A stretch of 61,686 nucleotides of DNA, filler included, from Dugesia japonica (Eukaryota), in NCBI GenBank assembly GCA_001938525.1. It is 6 parts of 6 records of this genome, joined end to end, with 100 filler letters (N's around TTAATTAATTAA, not from the genome) between each part and the next. Parts side by side here need not be neighbours in the genome. Positions count along the whole stretch, not along the records: positions 20,957 to 32,308 come from MQRL01602776.1; 5 more parts are not named here. The stretch is one strand, 5' to 3'. Shown here piece by piece: positions 12,262 through 42,158 of this stretch (positions within the stretch are counted from its first letter, which is position 1; each line of letters starts with the position of its first letter). Under the pieces are notes generated by a model. That model was given only the letters and a program-made list of their open reading frames with translations, ran no database searches and was not told the DNA's origin. The translations under genes were made by a program, and so were the position numbers.

Positions 12262-12361
12262 NNNNNNNNNNNNNNNNNNNNNNNNNNNNNNNNNNNNNNN
12301 NNNNNTTAATTAATTAANNNNNNNNNNNNNNNNNNNNNNNNNNNNNNNNNNNNNNNNNNNN
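12262..12361. other. Artificial contig spacer N44-TTAATTAATTAA-N44
   Basis: Exactly 100 nt with a six-frame-stop linker; identical at five sites. Confidence 0.95.
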
Positions 12362-17075: not shown

Positions 17076-17957
17076 TTTTTGATCGGATCAGTTTTTTTGA
17101 TCTGATTATTTTTTTTGATCCTGAAGGTGTGTGTGTGTGTGTGTATTTTTAAATTTTCTTTGTGTTTGGGTTGTTCAGGTGCTTTTCAAAAAGTAGGTTA
17201 ACTTGTGTGTGTGTAAAAGACTGAAAAAAACGAGGAGGAGTAGCTGGAGATCTTGGAGATAATTTTTTTGGATTTCAGTGATGATAAAAAAGTTTGTATC
17301 ATTTTTCAACAATTTATAAGAATTTCAGATAAAATTATTTGACTTCAAGTAAATTAGATATTATTATCTCGCACGTTTTGGAATCATTTGCATTAGATTC
17401 TTCACACTCTTGTTCTTACTTATTATTTTTCTAACTTAAAATAAAGAAACATACTNAGAATGAAGTGAAATCTGATTTGGATAAGAAATAATTGAAAAAG
17501 TATAACTTGTTTATCAATATTTTGTTCTTAATAATGAATTATAATGTAGTGGGGCAACTTAAAACAATTAATTTATTGGATGTATCTGGTTTAATGGTCT
17601 TATATTTAATTATAAAAACCTTTATTTTCACATTGAAACCAATATTGTCTTGTTAAATCCCATATTTTCACGATAAACCCATATATTATTTGTCTTCAGA
17701 CATATTTTTCCATTAAATCTATTTGTTTAATGTTGAATCTAATATTTCTAATGACGAGACCCGTATTTTCAATGTTAAACTCTTATTTTCTAACTATGTT
17801 ACTGATAATTTAGTATTTAAAAGAAAAATAAACCCATGAAAACCAAGGTGCATGCAGGGAACCAAGGCTTATTAACCAAGGAACAAGGAGCAAGCAAAAA
17901 GCAGAAGAACGATCAGATGATAAAAATATACTGAAATAGTCATTTTATTTTAAATAA

Positions 17958-18089
17958 AAAGAGTAATATTTAGAGATAAAAAACAATAAGACTGAGTGAC
18001 AGTGAGTAATAGTTGATATAGCATGCTATATCAACTTTTGCTCACTGTCACTTAGTCTTATTGTCTTTTATCTCGAAATGTTACTCTTT
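17958..18089. repeat. 132-bp near-perfect spacerless palindrome
   Basis: 66-bp arms symmetric about GCA|TGC (18021-18026), with scattered substitutions and no net indel. Confidence 0.9.
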
Positions 18090-19209
18090 AAATATTAAGA
18101 TCCAATAGAAATTAGAGAAAAAACCATAATCGCAAATAACGTATTTGTGGCTAAAATTCAGAATGACTCCACTAGGTATAACCATCATTGGTAGTCCGCG
18201 TTAGAAAGTTTTACAGTTTACTGGTCAGTGGTTTATTTCTTGTTGAGAACTATAGAGCACTGTTTTTCTAACGGTGATTCACGTTAGAAATTTTTTATAG
18301 TTTACTGTTCTACGATGCGTATTTGGTTAAGAAACACGGATTTAGATGAAATTTTTTTACCATTACCTATTGATTTCTCTTTTGTAATTTTAGTAATTTT
18401 ATAATATTTTAAATAAAAAACTCAATAATTTTTTATGTAATTAAATTTAGATTTGTTTTAATTTTGTTCACATTTTAATTAGTTTAAAATTATTGCTTTT
18501 TAATATTTCGATAATTTACNNNNNNNNNNNNNNNNNNNNNNNNNNNNNNNNNNNNNNNNNNNNATTTATTCTTATTTCACATTATCTAATTTTATTTTGT
18601 TATATTTATTGTTGTTTTACTAAAATAGAATACGGTTTATCAGTAAAATACAGAAATGAAATAACGTAACCGGTTATTATAAACAGTAAAACAAAATTTT
18701 ATATTTAAAATCATATTGTGCTGCACAAATAACAAATTGCGAATTGTATGCTAGCTAAAATGATTTTAGATTTTGTAATATAATTTTAGAATTTCATTTA
18801 AAAGTACAATTCCAAGTCATAGTTGATAAATTTGGTTTTGTAATTCTCTTTTTTTCGGTGATTTTATTGAAACTTATATATTGGTTTAATTAAACGATAA
18901 TTTCAATATTCAAGAAGTTTGTAAAATCACAAGAAATTATTTAAACAAAATTTATTGATTAAAACAATAGTTAAATTTTTTTTATGATAACAATAGATTA
19001 TTAATAAAACCAAATCTGTGTATAATGAGCACTGCATATCCTGAACATTTCATATAATGAACAAAATTTAAAAATTTTCAACAATCCTATGGAAAATTTA
19101 TCCATTTTCATTATATTGTTCGTACATTGTGAACAGTAAACACAGTTTTTAATAATTTCATAAAGCAATATATAATTTGTTTTAATTTTATAATTCGTTT
19201 AACTTCGTA

Positions 19210-20956: not shown

Positions 20957-21981
20957 ACTTTAAAATCATTCAATCTTTCAAATTTTGGTATATTTTTTAT
21001 TTCCATTGGCATAGTAATTCCTGTCCAATCTAACTTGTTAGTCTCTAGTTTAAATACTTTTTGATAATTAAAAACTGAATCTCCTAAAGAAGGATCAAGA
21101 TGAGCCATTATACAATATTTAAAGCAATTGAAATCATTATTTGGATTTTTAATATTTACAATTTCTGAAATATTATTCCATTCTGATGGTAAAGGAGAAT
21201 AATCTTGTCCAGCTAGCTGACCAACTAAAGANNNNNNNNTAGAAAGTTCAATTGTAAAAGAATTAAACTTTTCAAAAGACCAACCTGATCCTTGAGTCTC
21301 TGTTGTGAAAATATCTTTAGATAATTGATCCAACATGTTATCAATTACATCACTAACCTGATTGGACATTGTTATTTTCTCTGAATGAGTATGATAATCC
21401 TTTATCCAATTTTGATTAGTTGAACTACTTTCACCAACAAAGTCCTTTGTGTATGTAGTTGAACAAGTAATTGAAACTGCAACTTTCTGAAATTTATTCA
21501 AGAACAGATGAACCATTTCTTTCATTTCAGAAGAATAATCTTTTAAGAGATTAAAATTAATTCTATGATTAAATTGATAAATGTTTTCATTAGCTGGTTG
21601 ACTTTCATTTTTATAAATACTGAAATCTCTTTTCAATTTAATCATTGATTTTTGACATGTTTCAATTTCATAATCTCCAACTGGTGGACTATAATCTTTA
21701 AATAAATCTCTAAGATTATTAATTGTTCCAACTGGATTAGGAGTTTCAGCTAACTGAGCTACTTTTTCATTATGTTTACGTCCATTTATATGACTGTTGT
21801 AATTTACCAAGTTGTTAAAGTTAATATTACAAATATGACATCTTCTCCATACATTTCCTGCATTATTTAATTCAACTTTTCTTAAATGTGATCTACCTTT
21901 GAGATGAGTTTCAAAATGATAGAGACTTCTAAAATATTGATTACACAATTTACAATACTTTTCAATTTTAGTAGCACTCAT
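20957..21981 (-). CDS. Protein-primed DNA polymerase B, N-terminal part with two matrin/JAZ-type C2H2 zinc fingers; truncated at contig end
   Basis: CKLC..F..HFETHLKGRSH and CHIC..F..NSHINGRKH, followed by Polinton pPolB N-terminal motifs QGSGW, YSPLP, IVNIKN...CFKYCIMAHL and MPMEIKNIPKFERLN. The catalytic domains lie beyond the contig end. Confidence 0.8.
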
Positions 21982-22034
21982 TTCTTAAAGAAAAGATTTG
22001 GAGATACCGGGGGGGATAGAATTTAAAAAATAAT

Positions 22035-22745
22035 TCATTTTTTTATATTTCCTCCTAAAGGTTGACCAGTCCAGTTCACTGGAATCTGCCCCGCAAGTTG
22101 GTTCATTAATATTGGAAAAGTTTTGGCAAATTGATCTAGTTGTTCAACTAGTTGGTGTTGCAGATTGCCTTGCAGATTGTCATTATCCTTACTGCTAGCC
22201 AGATCTAGAGATTTTTTAACAAGTTGGGACTTGAGATTATTAATTATATCTTTTGAGGTTTTAATTTCTTCATTAGTTAATTCATCATCTTCCAAAGCTT
22301 TTACATGAAAGATGAATAATTTATTTTTAGTTTNNNNNAATAGTTTAATTTTCCAAGTATATTTAATTATCCTACTTCTTATTAAACTAATTCTTAAAGA
22401 TCCATGAGCAATAGAATAAATAATTGGTATTCCAGTTATTACTCCAGTTATTATTATTGGAATTGTAAAAGATAAAGTAGACATTAATATTATAGTTCCT
22501 GAAGCAATTCCTACTATAGTAGAAATTCCTACATCAGTAAATCTAACACCATTGTCAAATCTTGACCATCTTTTTAATAATTTGTTGTAATGATTTAGTT
22601 TATCATCAATCCATTCTAGATCACTTTCAAAATCTCTTATTCTAGTTCTATTTAATTTATTTTTTAAATCTTGAATAGTAAAATCTTGATTGTTTAAATC
22701 ATTATTTAAATCAACAGATAAATCTGGATAAAGTTGGTTAGTCAT
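22035..22745 (-). CDS. Maverick membrane protein with hydrophobic hairpin ('GasderminX'-like)
   Basis: N-terminal LYPDL, a coiled coil, a ~50-aa Gly/Ile-rich double hydrophobic segment, and KALEDDELTNEE resembling the KALxDxxIxxEEF motif of this family. Confidence 0.65.
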   Translation of the reverse strand: MTNQLYPDLSVDLNNDLNNQDFTIQDLKNKLNRTRIRDFESDLEWIDDKLNHYNKLLKRWSRFDNGVRFTDVGISTIVGIASGTIILMSTLSFTIPIIITGVITGIPIIYSIAHGSLRISLIRSRIIKYTWKIKLXXXTKNKLFIFHVKALEDDELTNEEIKTSKDIINNLKSQLVKKSLDLASSKDNDNLQGNLQHQLVEQLDQFAKTFPILMNQLAGQIPVNWTGQPLGGNIKK

Positions 22746-22752
22746 TTTTAAA

Positions 22753-23118
22753 TCAACTATTTTGAATTAACTCTAAAGAAAAATCTACATCTAAATTATT
22801 ATATATTTTTTTAGTTTCTTCTAAATCTGATAATATTTGAAGACTTTCAAAATGAAATTCTTTTTGTATGGTTAATGAAAATTTTTTAAAAATTCTTAAA
22901 TTATGACTTCCTACTCTTATAGGAGAATTAAATAAATTAAGTGAAGTTTTAAATCTTCCTACTTTTTCATTTGTTGGTATATTAGAAAATAAGTAAAATG
23001 GTGGTGAATTATTTAATGATATTAAAAATTTAATATTTTTAATTTCCTTTGTAGTATAACCAGTAATTATAAAATATAAAATTTCATAAGGTTCTCCCAT
23101 TTCAAAATAAAATACCAA
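22753..23118 (-). CDS. Hypothetical Maverick accessory protein (start uncertain)
   Basis: 121-aa ORF co-oriented and tiled between element genes; no recognisable motif. Confidence 0.45.
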   Translation of the reverse strand: MVFYFEMGEPYEILYFIITGYTTKEIKNIKFLISLNNSPPFYLFSNIPTNEKVGRFKTSLNLFNSPIRVGSHNLRIFKKFSLTIQKEFHFESLQILSDLEETKKIYNNLDVDFSLELIQNS

Positions 23119-23226
23119 ATTATTTGTGAAATAAAAATAATTAACTTTATTTATTTTTTCTAGTTTCCCTTTTCTATAAAATGAAATTTTATTTATTTTC
23201 TTGTCAGCTGAACCTTTAACTGTAGA

Positions 23227-23412
23227 TTATATACTTGGTAAATTATCTATTATTATACTTGTTGACAATTTGAATATAATACTTTCTGGAAGTATATTAT
23301 CATTAATTGAAAAATAATTATTAGTAATGTCAATTAACTCTTCCATCAGTTTTTTATTATAAATTTCTTTCTTTTGTTTTTGTATGTCTAATTTAATAAT
23401 TAATTCTTCCAT
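23227..23412 (-). CDS. Hypothetical small Maverick protein (may extend upstream)
   Basis: 61-aa co-oriented ORF within the element. Confidence 0.35.
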   Translation of the reverse strand: MEELIIKLDIQKQKKEIYNKKLMEELIDITNNYFSINDNILPESIIFKLSTSIIIDNLPSI

Positions 23413-23510
23413 GTATTTTAAATCATAATGATTAGTAATTTTTTTTATCTTATTTATTATTTCGGGTAAAGGATCATTTTTAGTTTGAACATAATATTCA
23501 AATTCATTTT

Positions 23511-23996
23511 TTAATTTATCAACTTGTTACATTTTTCTTCACTACATTTACTTGTTGAATCTTTAATTTGTTTTTCTAAATCTTCAAGTTTTTTCTCTTT
23601 ATTATTAAAAGCATCTCTATAAAAATTTTTAAGTTGAGTAAAATTTTCAAGTTGACTCAACATTTCACTTTTTANATTTATAAATTCTTTTTTACTTTCG
23701 CTTAAATGTAATTTATTACTTTCTAGTAAAGTATCTATAGTAACTTGTTGTTTAAGAATTTGTCCAGTAAACTTGTTACTAAGAATTTGTCCAAATTTTT
23801 GGATTTCTTTTTTAACCACGTTATTAACATAATCTCTATCATCATATTTTTTATTTTTAACTTCTTCTTCACGTTCATGTATTTTTAATTTGGTATTAAT
23901 TTTACTTTCTACTTTTTCATCAAAGTTTTCTATTAATTGATTCTCTAGTGTTTCTCCAAATCTATTCATTATTACATTTGAAAAACTATGAGTCAT
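23511..23996 (-). CDS. Hypothetical coiled-coil Maverick protein
   Basis: 161 aa, K/E-rich, ATG start directly downstream of the protease gene. Confidence 0.6.
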   Translation of the reverse strand: MTHSFSNVIMNRFGETLENQLIENFDEKVESKINTKLKIHEREEEVKNKKYDDRDYVNNVVKKEIQKFGQILSNKFTGQILKQQVTIDTLLESNKLHLSESKKEFINXKSEMLSQLENFTQLKNFYRDAFNNKEKKLEDLEKQIKDSTSKCSEEKCNKLIN

Positions 23997-24026
23997 TTCT
24001 TAATGGTAATTTTTAATGGTAATTTC

Positions 24027-24518
24027 TTAAAGCCATTCTTTAAAGGTATTTTTTAATTCATTAATTATTTCTTCAAATCGTCCATCCCAACTAGTTGATA
24101 AAGAACCTTCCTTATTATTCATTCTATAAATAAAATAAATACACAAGATTCCACAAATCTCAGTTTTCCAAGGTTGAACTTGAATCTTGTTGTATACAAC
24201 CTTATTTTTACCTTTAATAATAGAATCCAAAGGAGGTAAACCATAAGAATCAAAATAATATCCAGCCCAACTAGTTGGTTGCTGGCCTTTATTATCTGTT
24301 TGAACATAAGCAACCCAATGACTTCCTTTTTGATTAGAGTTTTGATAGTTTATTATCCAGTTTCCAACTAGTTGGAATGGATTAAATTCATCCTTCATCA
24401 CTATATAAACATTTAAATTTAAAAAATTAGCAATATTCATTAAATCAAAATTAGTTGTAGTTGATGTACCAAATGTTTTGAGAAAATCTAGAATTGTCCA
24501 ACTAGTTGACCAACTCAT
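24027..24518 (-). CDS. Adenain-like cysteine (maturation) protease
   Basis: IINYQNSNQKGSHWVAY (His), YYFDSYGLPP (Asp), QVQ....ICGILCIYFI (Gln/Cys). Confidence 0.93.
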   Translation of the reverse strand: MSWSTSWTILDFLKTFGTSTTTNFDLMNIANFLNLNVYIVMKDEFNPFQLVGNWIINYQNSNQKGSHWVAYVQTDNKGQQPTSWAGYYFDSYGLPPLDSIIKGKNKVVYNKIQVQPWKTEICGILCIYFIYRMNNKEGSLSTSWDGRFEEIINELKNTFKEWL

Positions 24519-24539
24519 TTTCTAACCAAGTTTATTGAC

Positions 24540-25301
24540 TTAATCAACTTGTCTCAANTGTAATAGGATATTAATCTTTTCTCCATCAAAATCTATTGTA
24601 TTAAAATTCTCGTCTACTATATTTAATTTTATTCTAGATATGAAATCTGTATTAATTTCTGAATAAATTGGATTAGCTGGTCTATCAGTTATCCTATATC
24701 CATAAGGAACTGTACCCATTGGTAAACTATGTAGTAAATTGTATTCTATATCATTTATATAATTACCTTGTACAATGTTGCAAATAATATTAATTGTATT
24801 TATATCAATAATATTAATTTTATTTTCAGAAATGAATTTAAAGTTTCCTGTACCATCATTAGATCCATTGATTAAATAACCATTTGGTAAAACATTAAAT
24901 CCTAAAATAGTATGAAAAAAAGAAGTATTATCAAATTCTAGCTTTAACTTTTCTTGAATGTTAATATCCTTGTTAATATCCTTGTTAATATCTTTTAAAT
25001 TCTTACTTTCAGGAATTAGAAAAGTTAATAATGCTCTACCTGATGATATATCAAAAGTTAAAAGTAAATTTTCTATTATCAACTTTTCTGCAATCTGTTT
25101 AATTTCATAAGCTCCAGGAGTTAGTGTTTTTTCTTTATCATTAATTTTAAATTTATTATTTTTATTATTAACATTTAAAATCATGTTGGATGTAGTAAAC
25201 CAAATTAAACCAATTTCCCAATCTCCTTCTAGTTTTAAACCATTTGATAAATTAGTTTTCAATTCATGTTCTTGACCAAATAATAAAAATTGATGAGACA
25301 T
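24540..25301 (-). CDS. Minor capsid protein (penton)
   Basis: LEGDWEIGL, PGAYEI, INIICNIVQGNY, PYGYRITDRPANPIY, IVDENFNTIDFDGE. First ATG is at 25301 (MSHQF); the track start at 25340 is TTG. Confidence 0.88.
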   Translation of the reverse strand: MSHQFLLFGQEHELKTNLSNGLKLEGDWEIGLIWFTTSNMILNVNNKNNKFKINDKEKTLTPGAYEIKQIAEKLIIENLLLTFDISSGRALLTFLIPESKNLKDINKDINKDINIQEKLKLEFDNTSFFHTILGFNVLPNGYLINGSNDGTGNFKFISENKINIIDINTINIICNIVQGNYINDIEYNLLHSLPMGTVPYGYRITDRPANPIYSEINTDFISRIKLNIVDENFNTIDFDGEKINILLXLRQVD

Positions 25302-25395
25302 AACCGAGCGAACGAAGTGAGTGAGGTTTCTATAAAGCAATTTATTATAGATTTTATTTTAACCTTGTTTCAAACTAGATGTAAAAAGCACTCGC

Positions 25396-26319
25396 TTATT
25401 CCAAGTATTTATCTTTTAACCTATTATACTTTTCACTAGTTATTAATCTATTGTCCAATAGTTTATTAATTATTTTATTAAAATCATTTTCAAGATTATC
25501 ATGTCCAGCTTTTATTGCACTAGTTATTTTAACAAACTTTTCCAACAACTTTATTGGATTTCCATTAGGATTTTCAATAGGATTTTCAATACCACTTCCA
25601 ATAGGTTTAATAGTATTAATTTCTTTATATTCAGGAGGATTTTTTAATTTTTTAAATTCTTCATCAAATATTCCATTTTTCTTACATGCTCTAATATATT
25701 TACTAGAAGATGGAGTAACAAAATTAAAGCTAGTTAAATAAATATTTTTAGCATTATCATCATTAGATCCATAACCAAACATTAACTTTAATACTTCTTG
25801 ATTAAAAGGTATTTCTTTCCCACTACCAGATTTATCATCTATAAAAAAATAATATTCTAATTCTCCGTTAACTAATCTTCGTTTTAAATAAATAAAATCT
25901 GAACCTATTTTAAAAGAATCAAAAGTTTTTTCCTGAGTAATTGGATCCTCATTATAAAAAATATAAGGAATCAAAGTAGGAGGTAAATCATATTTATTAC
26001 TAACTTCTAAATCTTCTTTTTTTATTGTTAATTTATCATCCTTTATATCTCCAGTAGGCTGTACTCCAGTAGGTTGACCAGCAGGTTGTTGAGGATTAAT
26101 TAAAGATTGTAATAAATTACCCTGAGGATTTAAGCCACTTGTTAAGCCACTTGTTAAGGCGCTTGTTAAACCACTTGTTAAGGCGCTTGTTAAACCAAGA
26201 TTAAGAGAAGGAAACTGAGATCTAAAATAAACTTGTTCTACTATTAATTTATTATATTTCTCTCTTCCACTAATTTGATCTTTTAAACTTTTTATTCTAT
26301 CATCAATCCAATCAGTCAT
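25396..26319 (-). CDS. Maverick protein of unknown function with low-complexity insert
   Basis: 307 aa. C-terminus IGSG...LLEKF....IKAGHDNLENDFNKIINKLL resembles a helical motif recurrent in Mavericks; LTSG/LTSA tandem repeats. Confidence 0.7.
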   Translation of the reverse strand: MTDWIDDRIKSLKDQISGREKYNKLIVEQVYFRSQFPSLNLGLTSALTSGLTSALTSGLTSGLNPQGNLLQSLINPQQPAGQPTGVQPTGDIKDDKLTIKKEDLEVSNKYDLPPTLIPYIFYNEDPITQEKTFDSFKIGSDFIYLKRRLVNGELEYYFFIDDKSGSGKEIPFNQEVLKLMFGYGSNDDNAKNIYLTSFNFVTPSSSKYIRACKKNGIFDEEFKKLKNPPEYKEINTIKPIGSGIENPIENPNGNPIKLLEKFVKITSAIKAGHDNLENDFNKIINKLLDNRLITSEKYNRLKDKYLE

Positions 26320-26357
26320 TTTGTTTAAAATATATTTAGTATTCCTTATCTAGATCC

Positions 26358-26963
26358 TTATCTAGATCCCTTCCATGGATTCAAATATAATCCCTTACCA
26401 CTTGGTATAATTTCTATTCCTTTTTTAAATTTCTTTTTATTAATTACTTTTAATGGTAAACCTTGACTTTTTAAATATTTATGAATAGCAGATCCTTGAT
26501 AAGGATTTAAATATATTCCAGTTCCAGTATACTGGGGTGGATCCGACTGTTGCTGCTGAGCAGCTGGCTGCTAGACAGCATGCTGCTGTTTTAATTGTCT
26601 TAATTGTTCTTCAAACAATTTATTCCTTTTCTGAACACCAATAGCTTCTCTTGAATTTGAAACTAATTTAGCTACACCTGCTGCTGCTCCCGCAACACCT
26701 CCTGCTACGCCTGTAACTGTTGCAATAGTAGGAGCAGCTGCACTTACAGCTGAACCTATTCCTGCCAAAATACCAGGTATTAAAGCCAATAAAGGAAATA
26801 CTCCACCTTGTGTCGTGCGAACTCCATCCTCATACTTTTGTTTTAATATTTCTTTAGTCTTTTTACCTATCCAATAATTTTTACCATTTATTTTTATTGA
26901 TTTGGATTTTTCACTATTTATTAAATCTATTAATTCTTTTTCAGTTGTGTTACTGTTAACCAT
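26358..26963 (-). CDS. Adenovirus pX-like core/membrane-active precursor, 201 codons with one in-frame TAG (26571-26573)
   Basis: QGGVFPLLALIPGILAGIG resembles the pX segment GGFLPALIPIIAAAIG. The frame stays open for 70 codons after the TAG, with GTGIYLNPY and GKGLYLNPW, to TAA at 26358-26360. Confidence 0.7.
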
Positions 26964-27074
26964 TTTATTTAACCGAGCGAAGCGAGGTTTCTATTTTTAT
27001 ATATAATAATTTAGTATTAACATAATTTAGATTCCAACTAGTTGGATAGATACCAAGGCCGCTTCGCGGCCAGG

Positions 27075-27963
27075 CTAAAACAAGGAATCCATCAAAACTT
27101 CTTGTTCCTTGTCTAGATAAAAATAATTATGTTTAGTTTTCCAATGGTGATTGGTTTCAAAGTCGTATTCTTCTTTATTATTAAAAATGTTACTAAATAA
27201 ATCATGATAGACATTATCTTTATCTCTTTTACCCAATTTAAAGAAAATAAAACAATTTCTATTATTTCTTATACTATTTTTATCCAAATCATAATATGTT
27301 TGAGATATATAAATTACATTGCAATTATTATGNNNNNNNNNNNNNNNNNNNNNNNNNNNNNNNNNNNNNNNNNNNNNNNNNNTTTTTATCCAAATCATAA
27401 TATGTTTGAGATATATAAATTACATTGCAATTATTATGTCTTCCTCTAGTAAAGTAGGATTTCTGTATTGATTGGTTTTTCTCATTTACTACATCATCAA
27501 AGATTATTAAATTCTTTTTATTTTTAGGTAACTTGTCACATGGTACAATATCACTTGATTTACTCGAAATTGAAATTGAAATCAACTCATCTGTCTGATT
27601 ACTGCTTAACTGGTTACTGCTGCCCAGCAAACTGCAATACCAAAAGATGATTTCTTGTGGATTTAAATCTTTGGGAATTCTATCTTGTACTTCATCTGAA
27701 AAAATATTCATTTAATCTTGTTTACTTAATCCTTGAGTAAATCCATGATATAATAATTGAATTTCAAATTGATTAATAGTAGTTGAAAATAAAATAAAAT
27801 TATTATAGTCTATAAAACTTGGTGTTAATAATATTTTTAATAACAAAACATTTTTACCACATCCAGATGAACCAATAATTAAACATCTGAATTGAGGAGG
27901 AAATATTTTATGTTGAAATTTACTTGCACTATTTTTCCATATAGGCAATATTCCACTTGCCAT
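27075..27963 (-). pseudogene. A32/FtsK-type packaging ATPase with one in-frame TAA and an assembly duplication
   Basis: Walker A IIGSSGCGKN (N in place of T/S), Walker B LIIFDD, RGRH...ISQTYY, SIRNN. In-frame TAA at 27712-27714. HNNCNVIYISQTYYDLDK is repeated on both sides of the gap at 27333-27382. Confidence 0.9.
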
Positions 27964-27967
27964 TTTA

Positions 27968-29347
27968 TTATAAATTAGTTGGACTTAACTCATTAGAATA
28001 AAATCTACCTAGTATTTCATCTCCTTCTTCATCTACAATTCCATAAGTTAATACTCCATCCCATGGTTGAGATGTGTTATTTTCTCTATAGATTTTGTAT
28101 ATTGTAAAAATACTTTTAGACCAATTTGTTGTATAACCTTTTTTAAATGTTCCTTTAAATCTAAAAATCCTAACTCTATCACCAATCTTTAATTTTTTGT
28201 TACCAAGATTCCATTTAACTGTTTTCTTATCTAGTTTAGTTAACTGTAATTCTGTAGGATTACTAGCATGTTCAGGAGTAATTCCAATTGAACTGTGAAT
28301 TGTATTATTATAATCATCAACTATAGAATTTAACAAATCTATATCCCATTTTTGATTACCCTGTTTAGTAAAAATTTTGTATAATCTTCTTTTAAATGTT
28401 CTAATTACTCGCTNTACAAAAACTGCTTTACCTTGAAGTTCTGTATTTAATGAAGTAGAATATAAATTAATATTATTATCATCACAAAACTCTTGAAAAA
28501 CTTTATTATAAAATTCTCTTCCATGATCTACCCATAAATTATTAGGAATACGATTACTTTTTTCTATTATATTTTCTAATCCTTCTTTTACTTCTTGTCC
28601 AGTTTTGTTTTCTAATACTTCTATAAATAAAAATCTAGTAAATAAATCAATCACTATTAATACAGGGGTCATGACTGTTCCAGTTGACTGTCTGTTTTTA
28701 GTTGAAGACTTAAACCCTTTGGGATTTCCTAAAAACATTAAATCAGCTGACCAAGTTTCATCTTTAAAGAATAATTTTACTTTGAGAAAGTGTTTATTTT
28801 TTTTGAAAGGTTTATGTAATTCATCAACTAGTTTATCAACAGCTCTAGTCTTTAGTCCAGCTCCCAATATTATCTTACCCTTCATAGCTAATTTAACTAT
28901 TCCTCTTTGAATCTTTTCAGTTATAGTTGGATTTTCTATATTATTTAAATCATGAATCATGTTTACATCAGCAATATGTCTATCTCTAACATCTTCACTA
29001 ATGTATGCTATATCATGTTTTAGAGCAGATTGATCAACTCTATTTACTGGTTCTTCCCCTGGTTTTGGTTGCATATAATTTGAATCATTAGGATCTTGTT
29101 CCAAACGAAGATCCAGTCTAGTTCCTGGTCCAGTGTAATTATGACCAAATAAATGCCTTTCACCTGGATACTTTTCTGTAGTAAAAGGTCTTAGTAAAGC
29201 ACTTGTTACTTTGGAAGATTGTAGATCTCCACCTTGTCTCGATTGGTCACCTCCGGCTCCCAGTTTTTTTAAACATCTTTTTTCATGTCTTAACATATTC
29301 GACTTGGTTAAATATCTATTACATCTTAAACACAATTCTTTAGTCAT
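27968..29347 (-). CDS. Zn finger / parvovirus-type PLA2 / rve integrase fusion protein
   Basis: CLRC..HEKRC finger; GHNYTGPGT and DQSALKHDIAY (PLA2); WSADL, IDLFTRF, LWVDHGREFYN, VXRVIRTFK, YNNTIHSSIGITP, IGDRVRI..FKKGYTTNWS (Maverick integrase). No chromodomain. Confidence 0.93.
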   Translation of the reverse strand: MTKELCLRCNRYLTKSNMLRHEKRCLKKLGAGGDQSRQGGDLQSSKVTSALLRPFTTEKYPGERHLFGHNYTGPGTRLDLRLEQDPNDSNYMQPKPGEEPVNRVDQSALKHDIAYISEDVRDRHIADVNMIHDLNNIENPTITEKIQRGIVKLAMKGKIILGAGLKTRAVDKLVDELHKPFKKNKHFLKVKLFFKDETWSADLMFLGNPKGFKSSTKNRQSTGTVMTPVLIVIDLFTRFLFIEVLENKTGQEVKEGLENIIEKSNRIPNNLWVDHGREFYNKVFQEFCDDNNINLYSTSLNTELQGKAVFVXRVIRTFKRRLYKIFTKQGNQKWDIDLLNSIVDDYNNTIHSSIGITPEHASNPTELQLTKLDKKTVKWNLGNKKLKIGDRVRIFRFKGTFKKGYTTNWSKSIFTIYKIYRENNTSQPWDGVLTYGIVDEEGDEILGRFYSNELSPTNL

Positions 29348-29369
29348 TTTTTTAATATTTAATTTTAAC

Positions 29370-30668
29370 TTACTTATTAGCTGGTGTTAACCCTGGTATT
29401 GTTGGTAATTTCATAGCTTTGAGATCTTGTCCTTTAATATTCTCTACAAACATTACTTTACCATTTGAAATTTTCAATTCTACATGCTTTTCTTGAAGTA
29501 TTAACCAATATAAATTACCACTTAATTCACTATCTTTGGTTATATGACATGTTAAATCTACATTATTTACAGTTAGTTTTTCCTCTTGAGCAGAGCAATC
29601 AAAACAGAATATTGGATAAAAACCTAACCAATCTTTAATACTTAGTTGAGGTTTTATTGCAAAAGCATTACACATTTCAACATACATTTGATATGGATAC
29701 ATTACTTGATTATTATTTACATCAAACTCCACTCTAGCATTTGGGTAATAAGTATTGTTTAGTTGTAATTGAATACTTTTTAGATAATAATTAAATGTCT
29801 TTTCTTCTTCTTTACCAGCTACATTTACCTTTTTAGTAACATTTTGTTTTATAGCAAATAAATTATTATTATTTTTATACGAATTATTATTATATTTAAA
29901 TCCTACTATAACAAATCTAGGTCTATATGGTAAATTACTCATTTTAATTGAAAAGCTAGTTCCTGTAGTTATTGAACAATTACCCATTTCTCTTTCCAAG
30001 AATGAAGATTGAATAGGTTTACCTTATGATAATCTTTCTAAATAACTAAATTCACTCTTGGGAGCTAAAGTCCATTCAGGAATAAGTAATTCAAGTGCAT
30101 CAATTTGAATTTCTACTTTATCATCTGTAGTTCCAAAGAATATTTTTTCATTCATTATCTCTCTATTNNNNNNNNNNNNNNNNNNNNNNNNNNNNNNNNN
30201 NNNNNNNNNNNNNNNNNNNNNNNNNNNNNNNNNNNNNNNNNNNNNNNNNNNNNNNNNNNNNNNNNNNNNNNNNNNNNNNNNNNNNNNNNNNNNNNNNNNN
30301 NNNNNNNNNNNNNNNNNNNNNNNNNNNNNNNTAGCTTTATCTACTAAAATTAAATTAATCATTGTAGAAGCTACATCTGGAAATGTTATTGACTCAATAT
30401 AAGTCAATCCTATTTTTAATCTCATTTGTGAGAATAAAGCTGGAAAGAAATCATTTTCCAATACAGTTGTTGGTTTTGGATTCTTGAAACTTATTCTAAA
30501 ATACATTTTTGCATTTCCTATATCCAAAGGATTAGTATTTTGTAGTGATTGAAATGAAACATCACCATTCTTGTTTAAATTAACTATCGATCCAGCTGTT
30601 GGAGAAATTTTCAACAAATCAGTTTTAGTTTGGTTGTGAATAAAGTCAATGTTAAAATCTAGATCCAT
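29370..30668 (-). pseudogene. Major capsid protein (double jelly-roll) with one in-frame TAA and an N gap
   Basis: ORFs 30024..30668 and 29370..29999 are in frame (LERLS*GKPIQSSFLEREM). Motifs: ALFSQMRLKIG, RPRFVIVGF, LQLNNTYYP, PIFCFDCSAQEE. Confidence 0.85.
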
Positions 30669-30680
30669 TTATTTAGAATT

Positions 30681-31007
30681 TCATTTTACCTTACCTAAAT
30701 ATGAATCCAAATCTTTACCAGTAATGTATTTAAAAGCCTTTTTCACCCATTTAATTATTTTAACTCTATTAAAGTAAATTATAGTTAACATTACAATTCC
30801 AATCAAGAAAAAAATAATAAACTTGTAAACTCTAATTTTTCCCTTTAAATCTACTATTGTTTTTTGATATTTTTTTTTATTTTCTTTTCTTAATAATTTT
30901 TCCATCTCCACACTTGTATTACTTGTTGTACTTGTTGTACTTGTATTACTTGTTATAGCTAAATCACTCAATATCTCCTCCTCCTTCTTTACAACTTCCT
31001 TTTCCAT
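30681..31007 (-). CDS. Small single-pass membrane protein of the Maverick
   Basis: 108 aa with S/T repeats, one TM (FIIFFLIGIVMLTIIYF) and a basic amphipathic tail; ends 12 nt before the MCP start. Confidence 0.65.
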   Translation of the reverse strand: MEKEVVKKEEEILSDLAITSNTSTTSTTSNTSVEMEKLLRKENKKKYQKTIVDLKGKIRVYKFIIFFLIGIVMLTIIYFNRVKIIKWVKKAFKYITGKDLDSYLGKVK

Positions 31008-32308
31008 TTCTTATAGACATAATTTAAGAAATATTGTTAAAGAACCTTGTTAAAGAAATCCTGATCATTTTTCAAACTATCTTTAATATATTTTTCATTT
31101 TTATCTTTAATTTTTTTAACTTGAGAAGTATAATATTTTTTTCTATTATCATCTTTTATTATATGCAATTCTATCATATTATTTAATTCTTCTTCATAAT
31201 TATAATTCACCCTTTTCTTAATTCACTAGAAGTTTTACTAGAAGTTGTACTAGAAGTTGTATTACTTCTTTCATATACTTCTTTATAAACTCTATAACTT
31301 AAATATAAATTTTTAAAGGTTTCTAAACTAATTGATTCCCCACTTTGTTCACTGTTTTTCTTTAATATTATTTTTAAATTTTCTTCTACGTCTAGCCTGT
31401 TTACAGAATCGTACTTCGTCGATTGTCAAATCTTCTAAAGACTCCGCTCGGAGTTCTTTTCTTTCTTGATCGGATTCTTCCATTGCACTTGAATCTTCAC
31501 TGCTGGATGTAATTTCGTCTGAATTGGTATCACTATCAATTTGTATTCGGCTTCCAGCTACACTTGTCATCCCCATATCATACTCATTATCTTTATCTTC
31601 TCTTCGTTTCTTAGGTGATGACGCATCATTCTCAATATTTAATTCTTAATCAAGGTCAATGCCACTGCACTTAGATCTTTTAGTATTGTTGTTTTGGTTT
31701 ACATTAGGTTTTGTTTGTTGGTCTGTAAGAGACTTAATTTTGTCCTTGGATTAATTGATTTCATTTTTATCTTTTTTCTTTAATGCTACTGGCCAGTAAA
31801 AAGCTGTAAGATGTAATTCCTCTCGTGGTGGTATTGAGGCGATGGGTTCTAGCGTATCCATTTTTGGTGTGAGGTTATGATCTTCCGTGGGTTTTATGGT
31901 GTCATCTTATAAGTTTGTTTTTTTAAGATGAATGAAGGCTTGTCGTATCCATTCAATTCTGTTGTTGGTAGTAGGCATTACTGTATGGTTCATTGACCAA
32001 ATCATATTTCGTATTTGGGGTTGAAATTGTACAGGTTTTAATATTGCTCCTATAACCGTATTCATCCGGTGTCTTGTGGTATTTGAATTTCTAACTAGAT
32101 TTTGATGCTATTTTCTTTTGACCAGATCTTTATAACCGATAATTTTATTTTATTATAATTTTATTTTATAAATCATAACCGATTATTATTTTTCATACAG
32201 CATTTGTCTAGCTTGTGTAATTATTGGATATGCGTCTTCCTTACCGATGAGTAGTTTTTCGTCATATCCCACTGTATCTGTATAATAATGTTTCACCCTT
32301 TCTCTATG

Positions 32309-40961: not shown

Positions 40962-42158
40962 TTAACTATTTATACTTCGAACTCGAGCGATATATTGTGA
41001 TGAAACTTTGCCGACTTGTAGATGGTTTTTATTTCGATGATAACCTTTATGCTTCGCAGTTGAATACAAACANTTAAATATATATTTCACACAATATTTA
41101 AATTTTGTGGATATAAGCAAAGAACAAAATGGATTAATCGATGAATTGAGATAACACATAAATTGGGAAATCGGTGTTAAAGTTTCTACCATGAAATTAT
41201 CGTATTTACGATTATTAGTTTCAGCAATATTGATTTTCATGACCACATCATTGTAAATACAACGAATATGATGCGGTAACCAACAAATTAGAAAAATCAA
41301 ACAAAGCATTATCAGAATTACCGACAATTTCTTTCTGCGATTTGAATAATCTACACTTCTTACAGAATTCGTGATCTCTTTCGGTGTTTTCCAAAGTTTA
41401 GATATCAAAATAAAATGAAGAATCAACATAGAAAACAATGGAATTAAATATAAAACAAAGAATGATAGAAAGGTGTAAATCATTTTATATTTTTGATTAC
41501 CAAACCAAGTTTCTTTACATTGATTTGTGTTGTTTGACATATCCATATGAACTACTTCACTAGCCATTCCTAATGGTAAACTTAGAAAAACACTCAACAA
41601 CCATATCGATAAAAGCCAGATTTTGATTTTTGAATTTTTAAAAATCACTTTATATTTCATTGGGAACATGATAACGTAAAATCTTTCAAAGCTGATGCTC
41701 ATTAATGATAAAACACTTACATGAACAGTTGTTGACTGTAAACCAGATTGAAATTGGCAGAAAAACGGATTGAACTTATACACCAAATTCACTTGATTAT
41801 ATAAAGTCAATGGAGCTGTTATTATTAAAACAAGCATATCACTGATTGCCAAATTTAGTAAGAATATATTCGCAAAATTTCTCATAAACTGAAATAATAA
41901 TACACTGATAATTACCAGAAAATTCCCGATAATACCAACACAAATCGACAATGAAAATATCAATTGTAATACAATAGAAAATGAGTTTTTATTATTACCA
42001 AGAAATGAAACCAATTTATCTTTTATACATATCGAAAATGAGTCGGTACCCGGAGATAAGTTTTCTTCAACACACATATTAAACCATTTTGTTTCTGTAT
42101 CACTATAGTTTGTTACTAATTGTAATATATTACTGGATTTTGTTGAATGTTTAAACAT
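40962..42158 (-). CDS. Class A (rhodopsin-like) neuropeptide GPCR, intronless
   Basis: Seven TMs: GNFLVI, NLAISD, C..SISFERF (DRY position), W..S...P, YLIP, FLICWLP, NSSINPF. Resembles the orexin/allatotropin/CCK-type peptide receptors; subfamily not assignable. Confidence 0.92.
   Translation of the reverse strand: MFKHSTKSSNILQLVTNYSDTETKWFNMCVEENLSPGTDSFSICIKDKLVSFLGNNKNSFSIVLQLIFSLSICVGIIGNFLVIISVLLFQFMRNFANIFLLNLAISDMLVLIITAPLTLYNQVNLVYKFNPFFCQFQSGLQSTTVHVSVLSLMSISFERFYVIMFPMKYKVIFKNSKIKIWLLSIWLLSVFLSLPLGMASEVVHMDMSNNTNQCKETWFGNQKYKMIYTFLSFFVLYLIPLFSMLILHFILISKLWKTPKEITNSVRSVDYSNRRKKLSVILIMLCLIFLICWLPHHIRCIYNDVVMKINIAETNNRKYDNFMVETLTPISQFMCYLNSSINPFCSLLISTKFKYCVKYIFXCLYSTAKHKGYHRNKNHLQVGKVSSQYIARVRSINS

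Follow-up and report, generated by a model that had tools for sequence, protein, structure and literature searches.

A PLA2-integrase fusion in a decayed Maverick-type element of Dugesia japonica as a candidate protease-processed virion precursor, with differing junctions in its relatives

The closest described counterparts of the locus analysed here are found among the adintoviruses. In the accessible part of supplementary file 2 of Buck et al. 2024 (PMC11071296), two elements, Adinto15303 and Adinto6405, carry the label 'PLA2-Integrase'; like the fusion presented below, they join phospholipase A2 (PLA2) in frame to an rve integrase, without a chromodomain and with a G-x-G border, and the protein of our own locus appears in the same file as uAdinto11140_Integrase. 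In two elements of that collection, PLA2 ends just past G-L-G and the integrase is annotated from a methionine beyond the first catalytic Asp, so that a shifted junction was left unjoined there. The paper predicts -1 frameshifts for penton and for hexon-adenain, and its file contains PLA2X-Adenain isoforms; a joined PLA2-integrase frameshift product is absent from its accessible parts, and the accessible main text has no match to 'PLA2'.

A PLA2 of this parvovirus type, with its catalytic and calcium residues conserved and a role in entry proposed for it, occurs in PLA2X of Alpha adintoviruses (Starrett 2021, PMC8502044) and in 'CAP' of Spodoptera Mavericks (PMC5803895), as far as the accessible text of both goes. 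PLA2X is presented by Starrett 2021 as PLA2 plus pX (the word 'fused' occurs 0 times in the accessible text), with a C-terminal pX-like domain in the same open reading frame (ORF), whereas our locus has PLA2 joined to the integrase and a pX-like gene of its own. The C-terminal chromodomain of the adintovirus integrase (Starrett 2021; Buck 2024) is absent from the fusion. Mavirus possesses a related rve integrase, encoded by a gene separate from the lipase; according to a review (PMC6723459), this integrase is packaged in the particle. The mavirus lipase is described in the accessible part of PMC3671162 as an alpha/beta hydrolase, not a PLA2.

Two more distant systems offer models. In retroviral Gag-Pol, a -1 frameshift or readthrough fixes the ratio and directs the enzyme into the core (PMC3542737); the fusion, putatively a virion precursor too, resembles it in having an rve integrase as its C-terminal part. 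Unlike Gag-Pol, the fusion belongs to a DNA virus-like element, is accompanied by a cysteine protease, and has PLA2 as the carrier instead of Gag; the putative frameshift junctions of its relatives lack a strong 3' structure, and it is not a member of that system. The adenovirus protease, whose substrates include pVI, pVII, mu/pX, and pTP, cleaves core and cement precursors, and its consensus is (M/I/L)XGX↓G or (M/I/L)XGG↓X (arrow, cut; accessible part of PMC4246237); the second candidate site of our fusion fits this consensus, but position P4 is mostly Lys in its relatives. No published test of Maverick protease specificity was found in our literature search.

The bare fusion is not new, being common and already labelled in a supplement. 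A description of PLA2-integrase processing or recoding was not found in the literature searched, outside which lay Repbase, most subscription papers, and some supplements, and the fusion itself is not described in the accessible parts of PMC5803895, 10.64898/2026.06.19.733378, PMC10301787, 10.64898/2026.10.13.758929, PMC3671162, and PMC12721341. The pattern of candidate processing sites and the three apparent ways of joining PLA2 to integrase reported here were likewise not found in print; they bear on how a Maverick integrase enters a new cell and on which substrates a Maverick protease cuts.

The fusion gene and the element that carries it

The window, i.e., the whole 61,686-nucleotide stretch of Dugesia japonica DNA that was analysed, contains 100-base spacers (N44-TTAATTAATTAA-N44) at 12262, 20857, 32309, 43236, and 52374; it is therefore a set of joined contigs, and neighbours across the spacers are unlinked. 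The contig with the fusion comprises positions 20957-32308 and carries, all on one strand, the following genes besides the fusion (L and P numbers denote fetched loci and fetched proteins, respectively):

29370..30668, minus strand: major capsid gene (PF21738, E 8e-7, above cut-off), disrupted (in-frame stop, N gap)
27075..27984, minus strand: A32-type packaging ATPase, in pieces (Pox_A32, E 2e-4 and 4e-3, below cut-off; BLAST support)
26358..26963, minus strand: pX-like gene with several G-x-G motifs (labelled by eye against PLA2X tails), in-frame stop at 26571-26573
24540..25301, minus strand: penton-like minor capsid gene (BLAST match to L001 and L002 ORFs labelled by eye)
24027..24518, minus strand: adenain-type cysteine protease, open frame (Peptidase_C5, E 0.03, below cut-off; BLAST match; His, Asp, and Gln/Cys motifs)
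20957..21981, minus strand: N-terminal part of pPolB with zinc fingers, truncated at the contig end (BLAST match to PolB ORFs of L001 and L002)

By its gene content, the element is a decayed copy of the Maverick/adintovirus type. Of the Maverick/Polinton hallmarks, the rve integrase, the double jelly-roll capsid, the A32 ATPase, and the adenain protease are present, the capsid and ATPase genes in broken form, and the N-terminal part of protein-primed PolB alone precedes the contig end. No terminal inverted repeats or target-site duplication were found on contig 20957-32308, which ends at spacers, and the pX-like gene had no BLAST match to pX references at 1e-4. The decay is evident from the in-frame stops or gaps that break the capsid, ATPase, and pX genes, and, with these genes broken, the copy probably does not work as a virus. 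The pPolB N-terminus (20957-21981) contains two C2H2/matrin-type zinc fingers whose pattern resembles the leader of the fusion's close relatives, and sharing of a zinc-finger module between the two is possible. Elsewhere in the window, a hairpin-like, spacerless inverted repeat with 75-nt arms (87% complementary) lies at 17949-18098, and an intronless rhodopsin-family GPCR gene (7tm_1, E 6e-47) lies at 40962-42158 on a separate contig and points to an animal host.

The fusion and its parts are as follows:

27968..29347, minus strand: zinc finger-PLA2-rve integrase fusion ORF (Pfam, homologues, integrase fold match; no chromodomain)
29273..29332, minus strand: C2HC-type zinc-finger leader, aa 6-25 (sequence; AlphaFold2 model)
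29252..29263, minus strand: first LGAG, aa 29-32, not conserved and rejected as a functional site
29225..29236, minus strand: candidate cut GG↓D, aa 39-41, before PLA2 (alignment; pLDDT below 50 at aa 30-45)
28859..29227, minus strand: parvovirus-type PLA2 domain, aa 41-163 (PF08398; model pLDDT 89)
28856..28870, minus strand: candidate cut ILGA↓G, aa 160-164, at the PLA2/integrase border (alignment; pLDDT below 50 at aa 163-166)
27968..28858, minus strand: rve integrase part, aa 164-459 (Pfam, alignment, fold; D202, D274, third catalytic position unread)

A reading made beforehand from the sequence alone (the sequence-only reading) had described one continuous 459-aa frame holding a C2HC finger, a PLA2, and an rve integrase without a chromodomain, and in these respects it was borne out. 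Translation of the window gave a single open frame of 459 aa, in which Pfam placed Phospholip_A2_4 (PF08398) at aa 65-152 (E 4e-8) and rve (PF00665) at aa 197-295 (E 7e-10), both above cut-off; no Chromo match was found in the 459 aa, and the ATPase gene follows directly behind. The finger claimed at aa 6-25 has all of C6, C9, H21, and C25, and AlphaFold2 modelled aa 3-29 as two strands and one helix; aa 1-40 had no Pfam match. PLA2 had been placed at about aa 65-130, where its motifs indeed lie, namely, the YxGxG calcium loop (YTGPG, aa 71-75), HDxxY (HD at aa 111-112, Y115), and the second Asp (D127), but its extent had been underestimated, since the module reaches about aa 163. The ambiguous base reported at the catalytic Glu codon was also found: the N at 28414 yields X at aa 312, leaving the third catalytic position of the integrase unread in the window, and this base lies outside the contig matches listed.

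Fold comparisons agree with the integrase assignment, the model matching foamy-virus and other retroviral integrases in a structure search; a sequence search of solved structures gave foamy-virus integrase as the sole match (E 0.03). For the PLA2 domain, the top two Foldseek rows were bacterial PLA2s with weak scores (E 0.6 and 1.2), and the comparison with rice PLA2 (Z 6.7, rmsd 3.6, 90 aligned) was tied with unrelated rows.

The N gaps and broken genes on this contig could suggest that the fusion is itself an assembly error or a single mutation. A contig from run X3 nevertheless spans the PLA2-integrase junction exactly, being identical over 28772-28898 with 0 differences and 0 gaps, and PLA2 and rve occur together in 46 of 120 listed homologues (200 in all), which answers the call of the sequence-only reading for confirmation of the junction in other sequences. 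In a quick integrase tree, the window protein moreover falls inside a clade (support 100) that comprises 20 in-frame fusions (67 rows; short integrases, the duplicates L091 and L098, L065, and 13 of the 21 separate-gene loci were left out). An artefact or one-off event is thereby ruled out, with at most a trace of probability left to it. Loss of the chromodomain in the window copy alone is ruled out as well: the whole clade is without it, no chromodomain motif being found in its 17 full proteins. Two sequencing runs contain thousands of related contigs, most of them 85-95% alike. Two RNA runs labelled with the same species yielded 34 and 4 reads, not one of them 95% or more alike, a result that is neutral on expression.

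Distribution, conservation, and candidate cut sites

A search anchored on PLA2 revealed many more fusions, including DUF5679-PLA2-rve clusters of 300 and 365 members. Among all fetched proteins there were 160 fusions, forming 70 clusters at 70% identity, and both domains were present in 30 of the best 150 representatives at 50% (2 of the 30 being doubtful). The sequence-only reading had held that it would fail if the fusion proved widespread and already described; widespread it is, and its description amounts, in the accessible sources, to a label in one supplement. In the 52-row alignment, whose rows were selected as fusions, H111, D112, Y115, and D127 of PLA2 are invariant (52/52), 51 rows keep D202 and D274 of the integrase, and 50 of 51 relatives have Glu as the third catalytic residue; with the catalytic residues of both domains kept, PLA2 and integrase both look conserved as enzymes in this family. 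The leader is a variable module in the relatives, being a C2H2 finger, a DUF5679 ribbon, or absent, and a CxxC motif occurs in it in 21 of 70 clusters.

The window protein has LGAG at aa 29-32 and again at aa 161-164, and QGG at aa 38-40, and LGAG on both sides of PLA2 had been proposed as a pair of adenain-like sites. Both copies are present, and the second stood up to comparison: the adenovirus consensus is matched at aa 160-164, where ILGA↓G conforms to (M/I/L)XGX↓G (accessible part of PMC4246237), and is not matched at aa 29-33 or aa 37-41. The first copy did not, its G30, A31, and G32 each occurring in 1 of 52 alignment rows and thus being private to the window copy. A symmetric LGAG pair is therefore ruled out as the sites, and the symmetry is chance.

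Conservation is seen at two glycine sites. Before PLA2, the GG↓D column has G39 in 32 and G40 in 23 of the 39 rows with a residue there, and D41 in 44 of 49; with Arg at P4, this site of the window lies outside the adenovirus consensus. At the PLA2-integrase border, G162 is present in 52/52 rows and G164 in 38/52, and phi-G-x-G occurs in 55 of 70 clusters. Both candidate sites have low pLDDT in the AlphaFold2 model, as in flexible linkers. The leader is at most 6 residues long in 28 of 70 clusters, some from truncated records, so that these proteins begin about where the first cut would fall, and 31 of the other 42 clusters have a Gly motif at that place.

Whether these glycines mark cuts at all has to be weighed against a fusion that works uncut, in which they would terminate the final helix of PLA2 and act as a hinge, with PLA2 staying attached to the integrase, e.g., as a membrane tether. 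G-x-G also closes the PLA2 domain of ordinary PLA2X proteins and may therefore belong to the domain itself; P4 lies outside the adenovirus consensus in most relatives (Lys in 23/52 rows), so this consensus is not family-wide; and several relatives have a linker of only 6 residues. Against an uncut fusion, however, linker length in the fusion alignment ranges from 6 to 76 residues, and the stand-alone PLA2 genes stop inside the motif: all 21 loci have the stop at this column, 17 of them at G-x, the predicted cut. These stand-alone genes form one clade (3-12 clusters), and TGA, which accounts for 15 of the 21 stops, is a single change away from a Gly codon. The motif also occurs apart from PLA2: G-x-G-phi is enriched in pX-like proteins, which have no PLA2 (59 occurrences vs 10 expected), and in a small core-like ORF (8 vs 1.3 expected), with no excess over expectation in PolB, ATPase, capsid, penton, or protease, all of these counts resting on reference gene labels assigned by eye. 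Finally, in P0246, P0273, and P0234, an adenain-like protease (matches below cut-off) is joined in frame to an rve-chromodomain integrase by a G-x-G-phi linker, an arrangement with 0 matches as 'Adenain-Integrase' in the accessible protein file of Buck 2024. We consider an uncut fusion unlikely.

Junction states in relatives

In 36 of 101 fetched loci, an integrase is found at most 250 bases behind PLA2. These junctions comprise 14 in the -1 frame, 6 in +1, 12 open in frame, 3 with in-frame UGA-CUA, and 1 with TAG. The deciding loci were found by PLA2 patterns, with the best 80 of 404 used in the metagenome scan, so the sample is biased toward the query and not toward any junction state; the counts are given without a p-value because kin are not independent.

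Out-of-frame junctions coincide with A tracts. A tract of at least 7 A within 45 bases of the motif occurs in 14/14 of the -1 loci, 5/6 of the +1 loci, and 0/13 of those open in frame (window included), and in 19 of the 20 shifted loci (the exception is L001) an A6-8 tract just past the motif, before the PLA2 stop, offers entry into the integrase frame, which is open from there on. No AUG precedes the first catalytic Asp in 17 of these 20. On the quick tree, the -1 state needs at least 4 changes.

An alternative account of these loci takes the shifts for homopolymer slips, in dead copies or assemblies, and holds that the in-frame fusion alone was ever functional. Several observations favour it: 6 of 20 shifted loci are +1 and not -1, with L100 (+1) a close sister of L094 (-1); L001 keeps its frame across the tract, at which P0164 is different, so tract length can vary between near-identical records; and poly-Lys linkers, which produce A tracts, are found in large in-frame families as well. 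Nor was a consistent 3' stimulatory structure found at the -1 junctions (mean z -0.22 over 14 loci, 70-nt windows, pseudoknot-free folding). Against this account stands the lineage pattern: at 85% clustering, 12 of 13 lineages with a tract of at least 7 A are out of frame at it and 0 of 8 open in-frame lineages have one, and in the same coding regions, 19.1 kb in all, such tracts occur 4 times, in frame. Six sister pairs sharing the -1 state, with PLA2 dS of 0.18-0.79, have dN/dS of 0.03-0.35 over both domains, which argues against dead copies, and 12 of the 14 '-1' integrases have no other break. Slips also leave the UGA-CUA junctions of three loci unexplained. Given the tract variation between L001 and P0164 and possible decay in L094/L100, the lesion account keeps an appreciable minority probability, and the +1 cases may be decayed -1 cases, as in this pair.

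As to how a -1 change might occur, a strict X_XXY_YYZ heptamer in the zero frame is present in 8 of 13 '-1' loci (L001 left out), and the remaining 5 show either a tract in a different phase or a heptamer that departs from the canonical form. With several tract phases, 8/13 strict heptamers, and no 3' structure, polymerase slippage and ribosomal frameshifting are indistinguishable here.

The UGA-CUA junctions lie in L053 (2480-2520), L076, and L099 (1465-1500), where PLA2 is joined to a different integrase type; the three loci represent 2 lineages at 85% and 1 at 80%. By the criterion for type II readthrough, UGA followed by CUA or CGG plus a 3' stem-loop, they match the pattern and are candidates for readthrough, a stem-loop being predicted behind UGA-CUA in each (z -1.95 in L053, -2.72 in L076, and -2.08 in L099).

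A candidate virion precursor

Our preferred reading, to which we assign a probability of about 0.6, is that the fusion is a protease-processed virion precursor and that its integrase is dosed in some lineages in the manner of Gag-Pol. The architecture, its distribution, the conserved catalytic and glycine residues, and the junction states of the relatives are observed; that the protein is packaged and cleaved, that PLA2 acts at entry, and that recoding takes place is inferred, as follows. The fusion would be packaged in the particle as a precursor, with the leader in a putative DNA- or capsid-binding role, and the element's adenain-type protease would cut at the predicted sites GG↓D and G-x↓G, releasing PLA2 and integrase inside the particle. 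The freed PLA2 would then breach the endosome, on the model of parvovirus VP1 and PLA2X (accessible part of PMC8502044), and the integrase would enter the new cell with the genome, as stated for mavirus in a review (PMC6723459). In the window's clade, a plain fusion would be made constitutively, with PLA2 and integrase at 1:1; sister lineages would make mostly PLA2 and a minority of PLA2-integrase, through a frame change on an A7-8 tract or through UGA-CUA readthrough, and such recoding would lower the integrase dose as in Gag-Pol (PMC3542737).

A virion polyprotein processed by the element's protease, coupling membrane penetration to integrase delivery, had already been suggested by the sequence-only reading. 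Its architecture and precursor idea stand and are strengthened by the invariant border Gly, the predicted disorder at both sites, and the motif in pX-like and protease-integrase proteins; the LGAG symmetry on which it also drew is lost. If the sites are cut, moreover, PLA2 and integrase would be co-packaged but not physically coupled at entry.

The fusion might instead merely save a promoter, the parts of one mRNA's product being separated in the producing cell and the integrase acting there, transposon-like and unpackaged. The host's many related copies and the own start codon of many Maverick integrases would suit such an arrangement. Each identified N-terminal partner (PLA2, protease) is, however, a predicted virion protein, and the adenain-type protease acts in the particle in adenovirus (accessible part of PMC4246237); we regard unpackaged action as quite improbable.

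In a tentative extension of the precursor reading, which we hold to be possible but somewhat less probable than its converse, many animal Mavericks would deliver their integrase as retroviruses do, i.e., as the C-terminal part of a virion precursor with a PLA2 or protease carrier, cut at G-x↓G, its dose being set by three interchangeable devices (plain fusion, A-tract frame change, and UGA readthrough). If this is true, annotations of such elements that begin the integrase at its first Met would be wrong and truncated. A conserved precursor with a defined glycine site offers predictions for the protease that peptides can test and for particle proteomics, and the junctions are short recoding candidates in an animal DNA element that can be tested with reporters. 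For annotation, records of 'PLA2 plus short integrase' and apparent frameshift lesions at the junction may be intact genes.

Minor observations concern individual records of the search set. Many of the Lottia gigantea gene models P0064-P0149 contain the same PLA2, in some followed by the first integrase residues and then by unrelated sequence, and these are likely mis-spliced models of the same fusion family. The L101 contig, assigned to a bacterial metagenome-assembled genome, contains a near-complete Maverick and probably represents contamination at the binning step. Viral contigs of ~3.2-3.5 kb (L005, L007-L012, and L014-L020) contain a related PLA2-like stretch without an integrase or a G-x-G end, and P0327 carries a DUF5679 zinc ribbon directly on an integrase, without PLA2.
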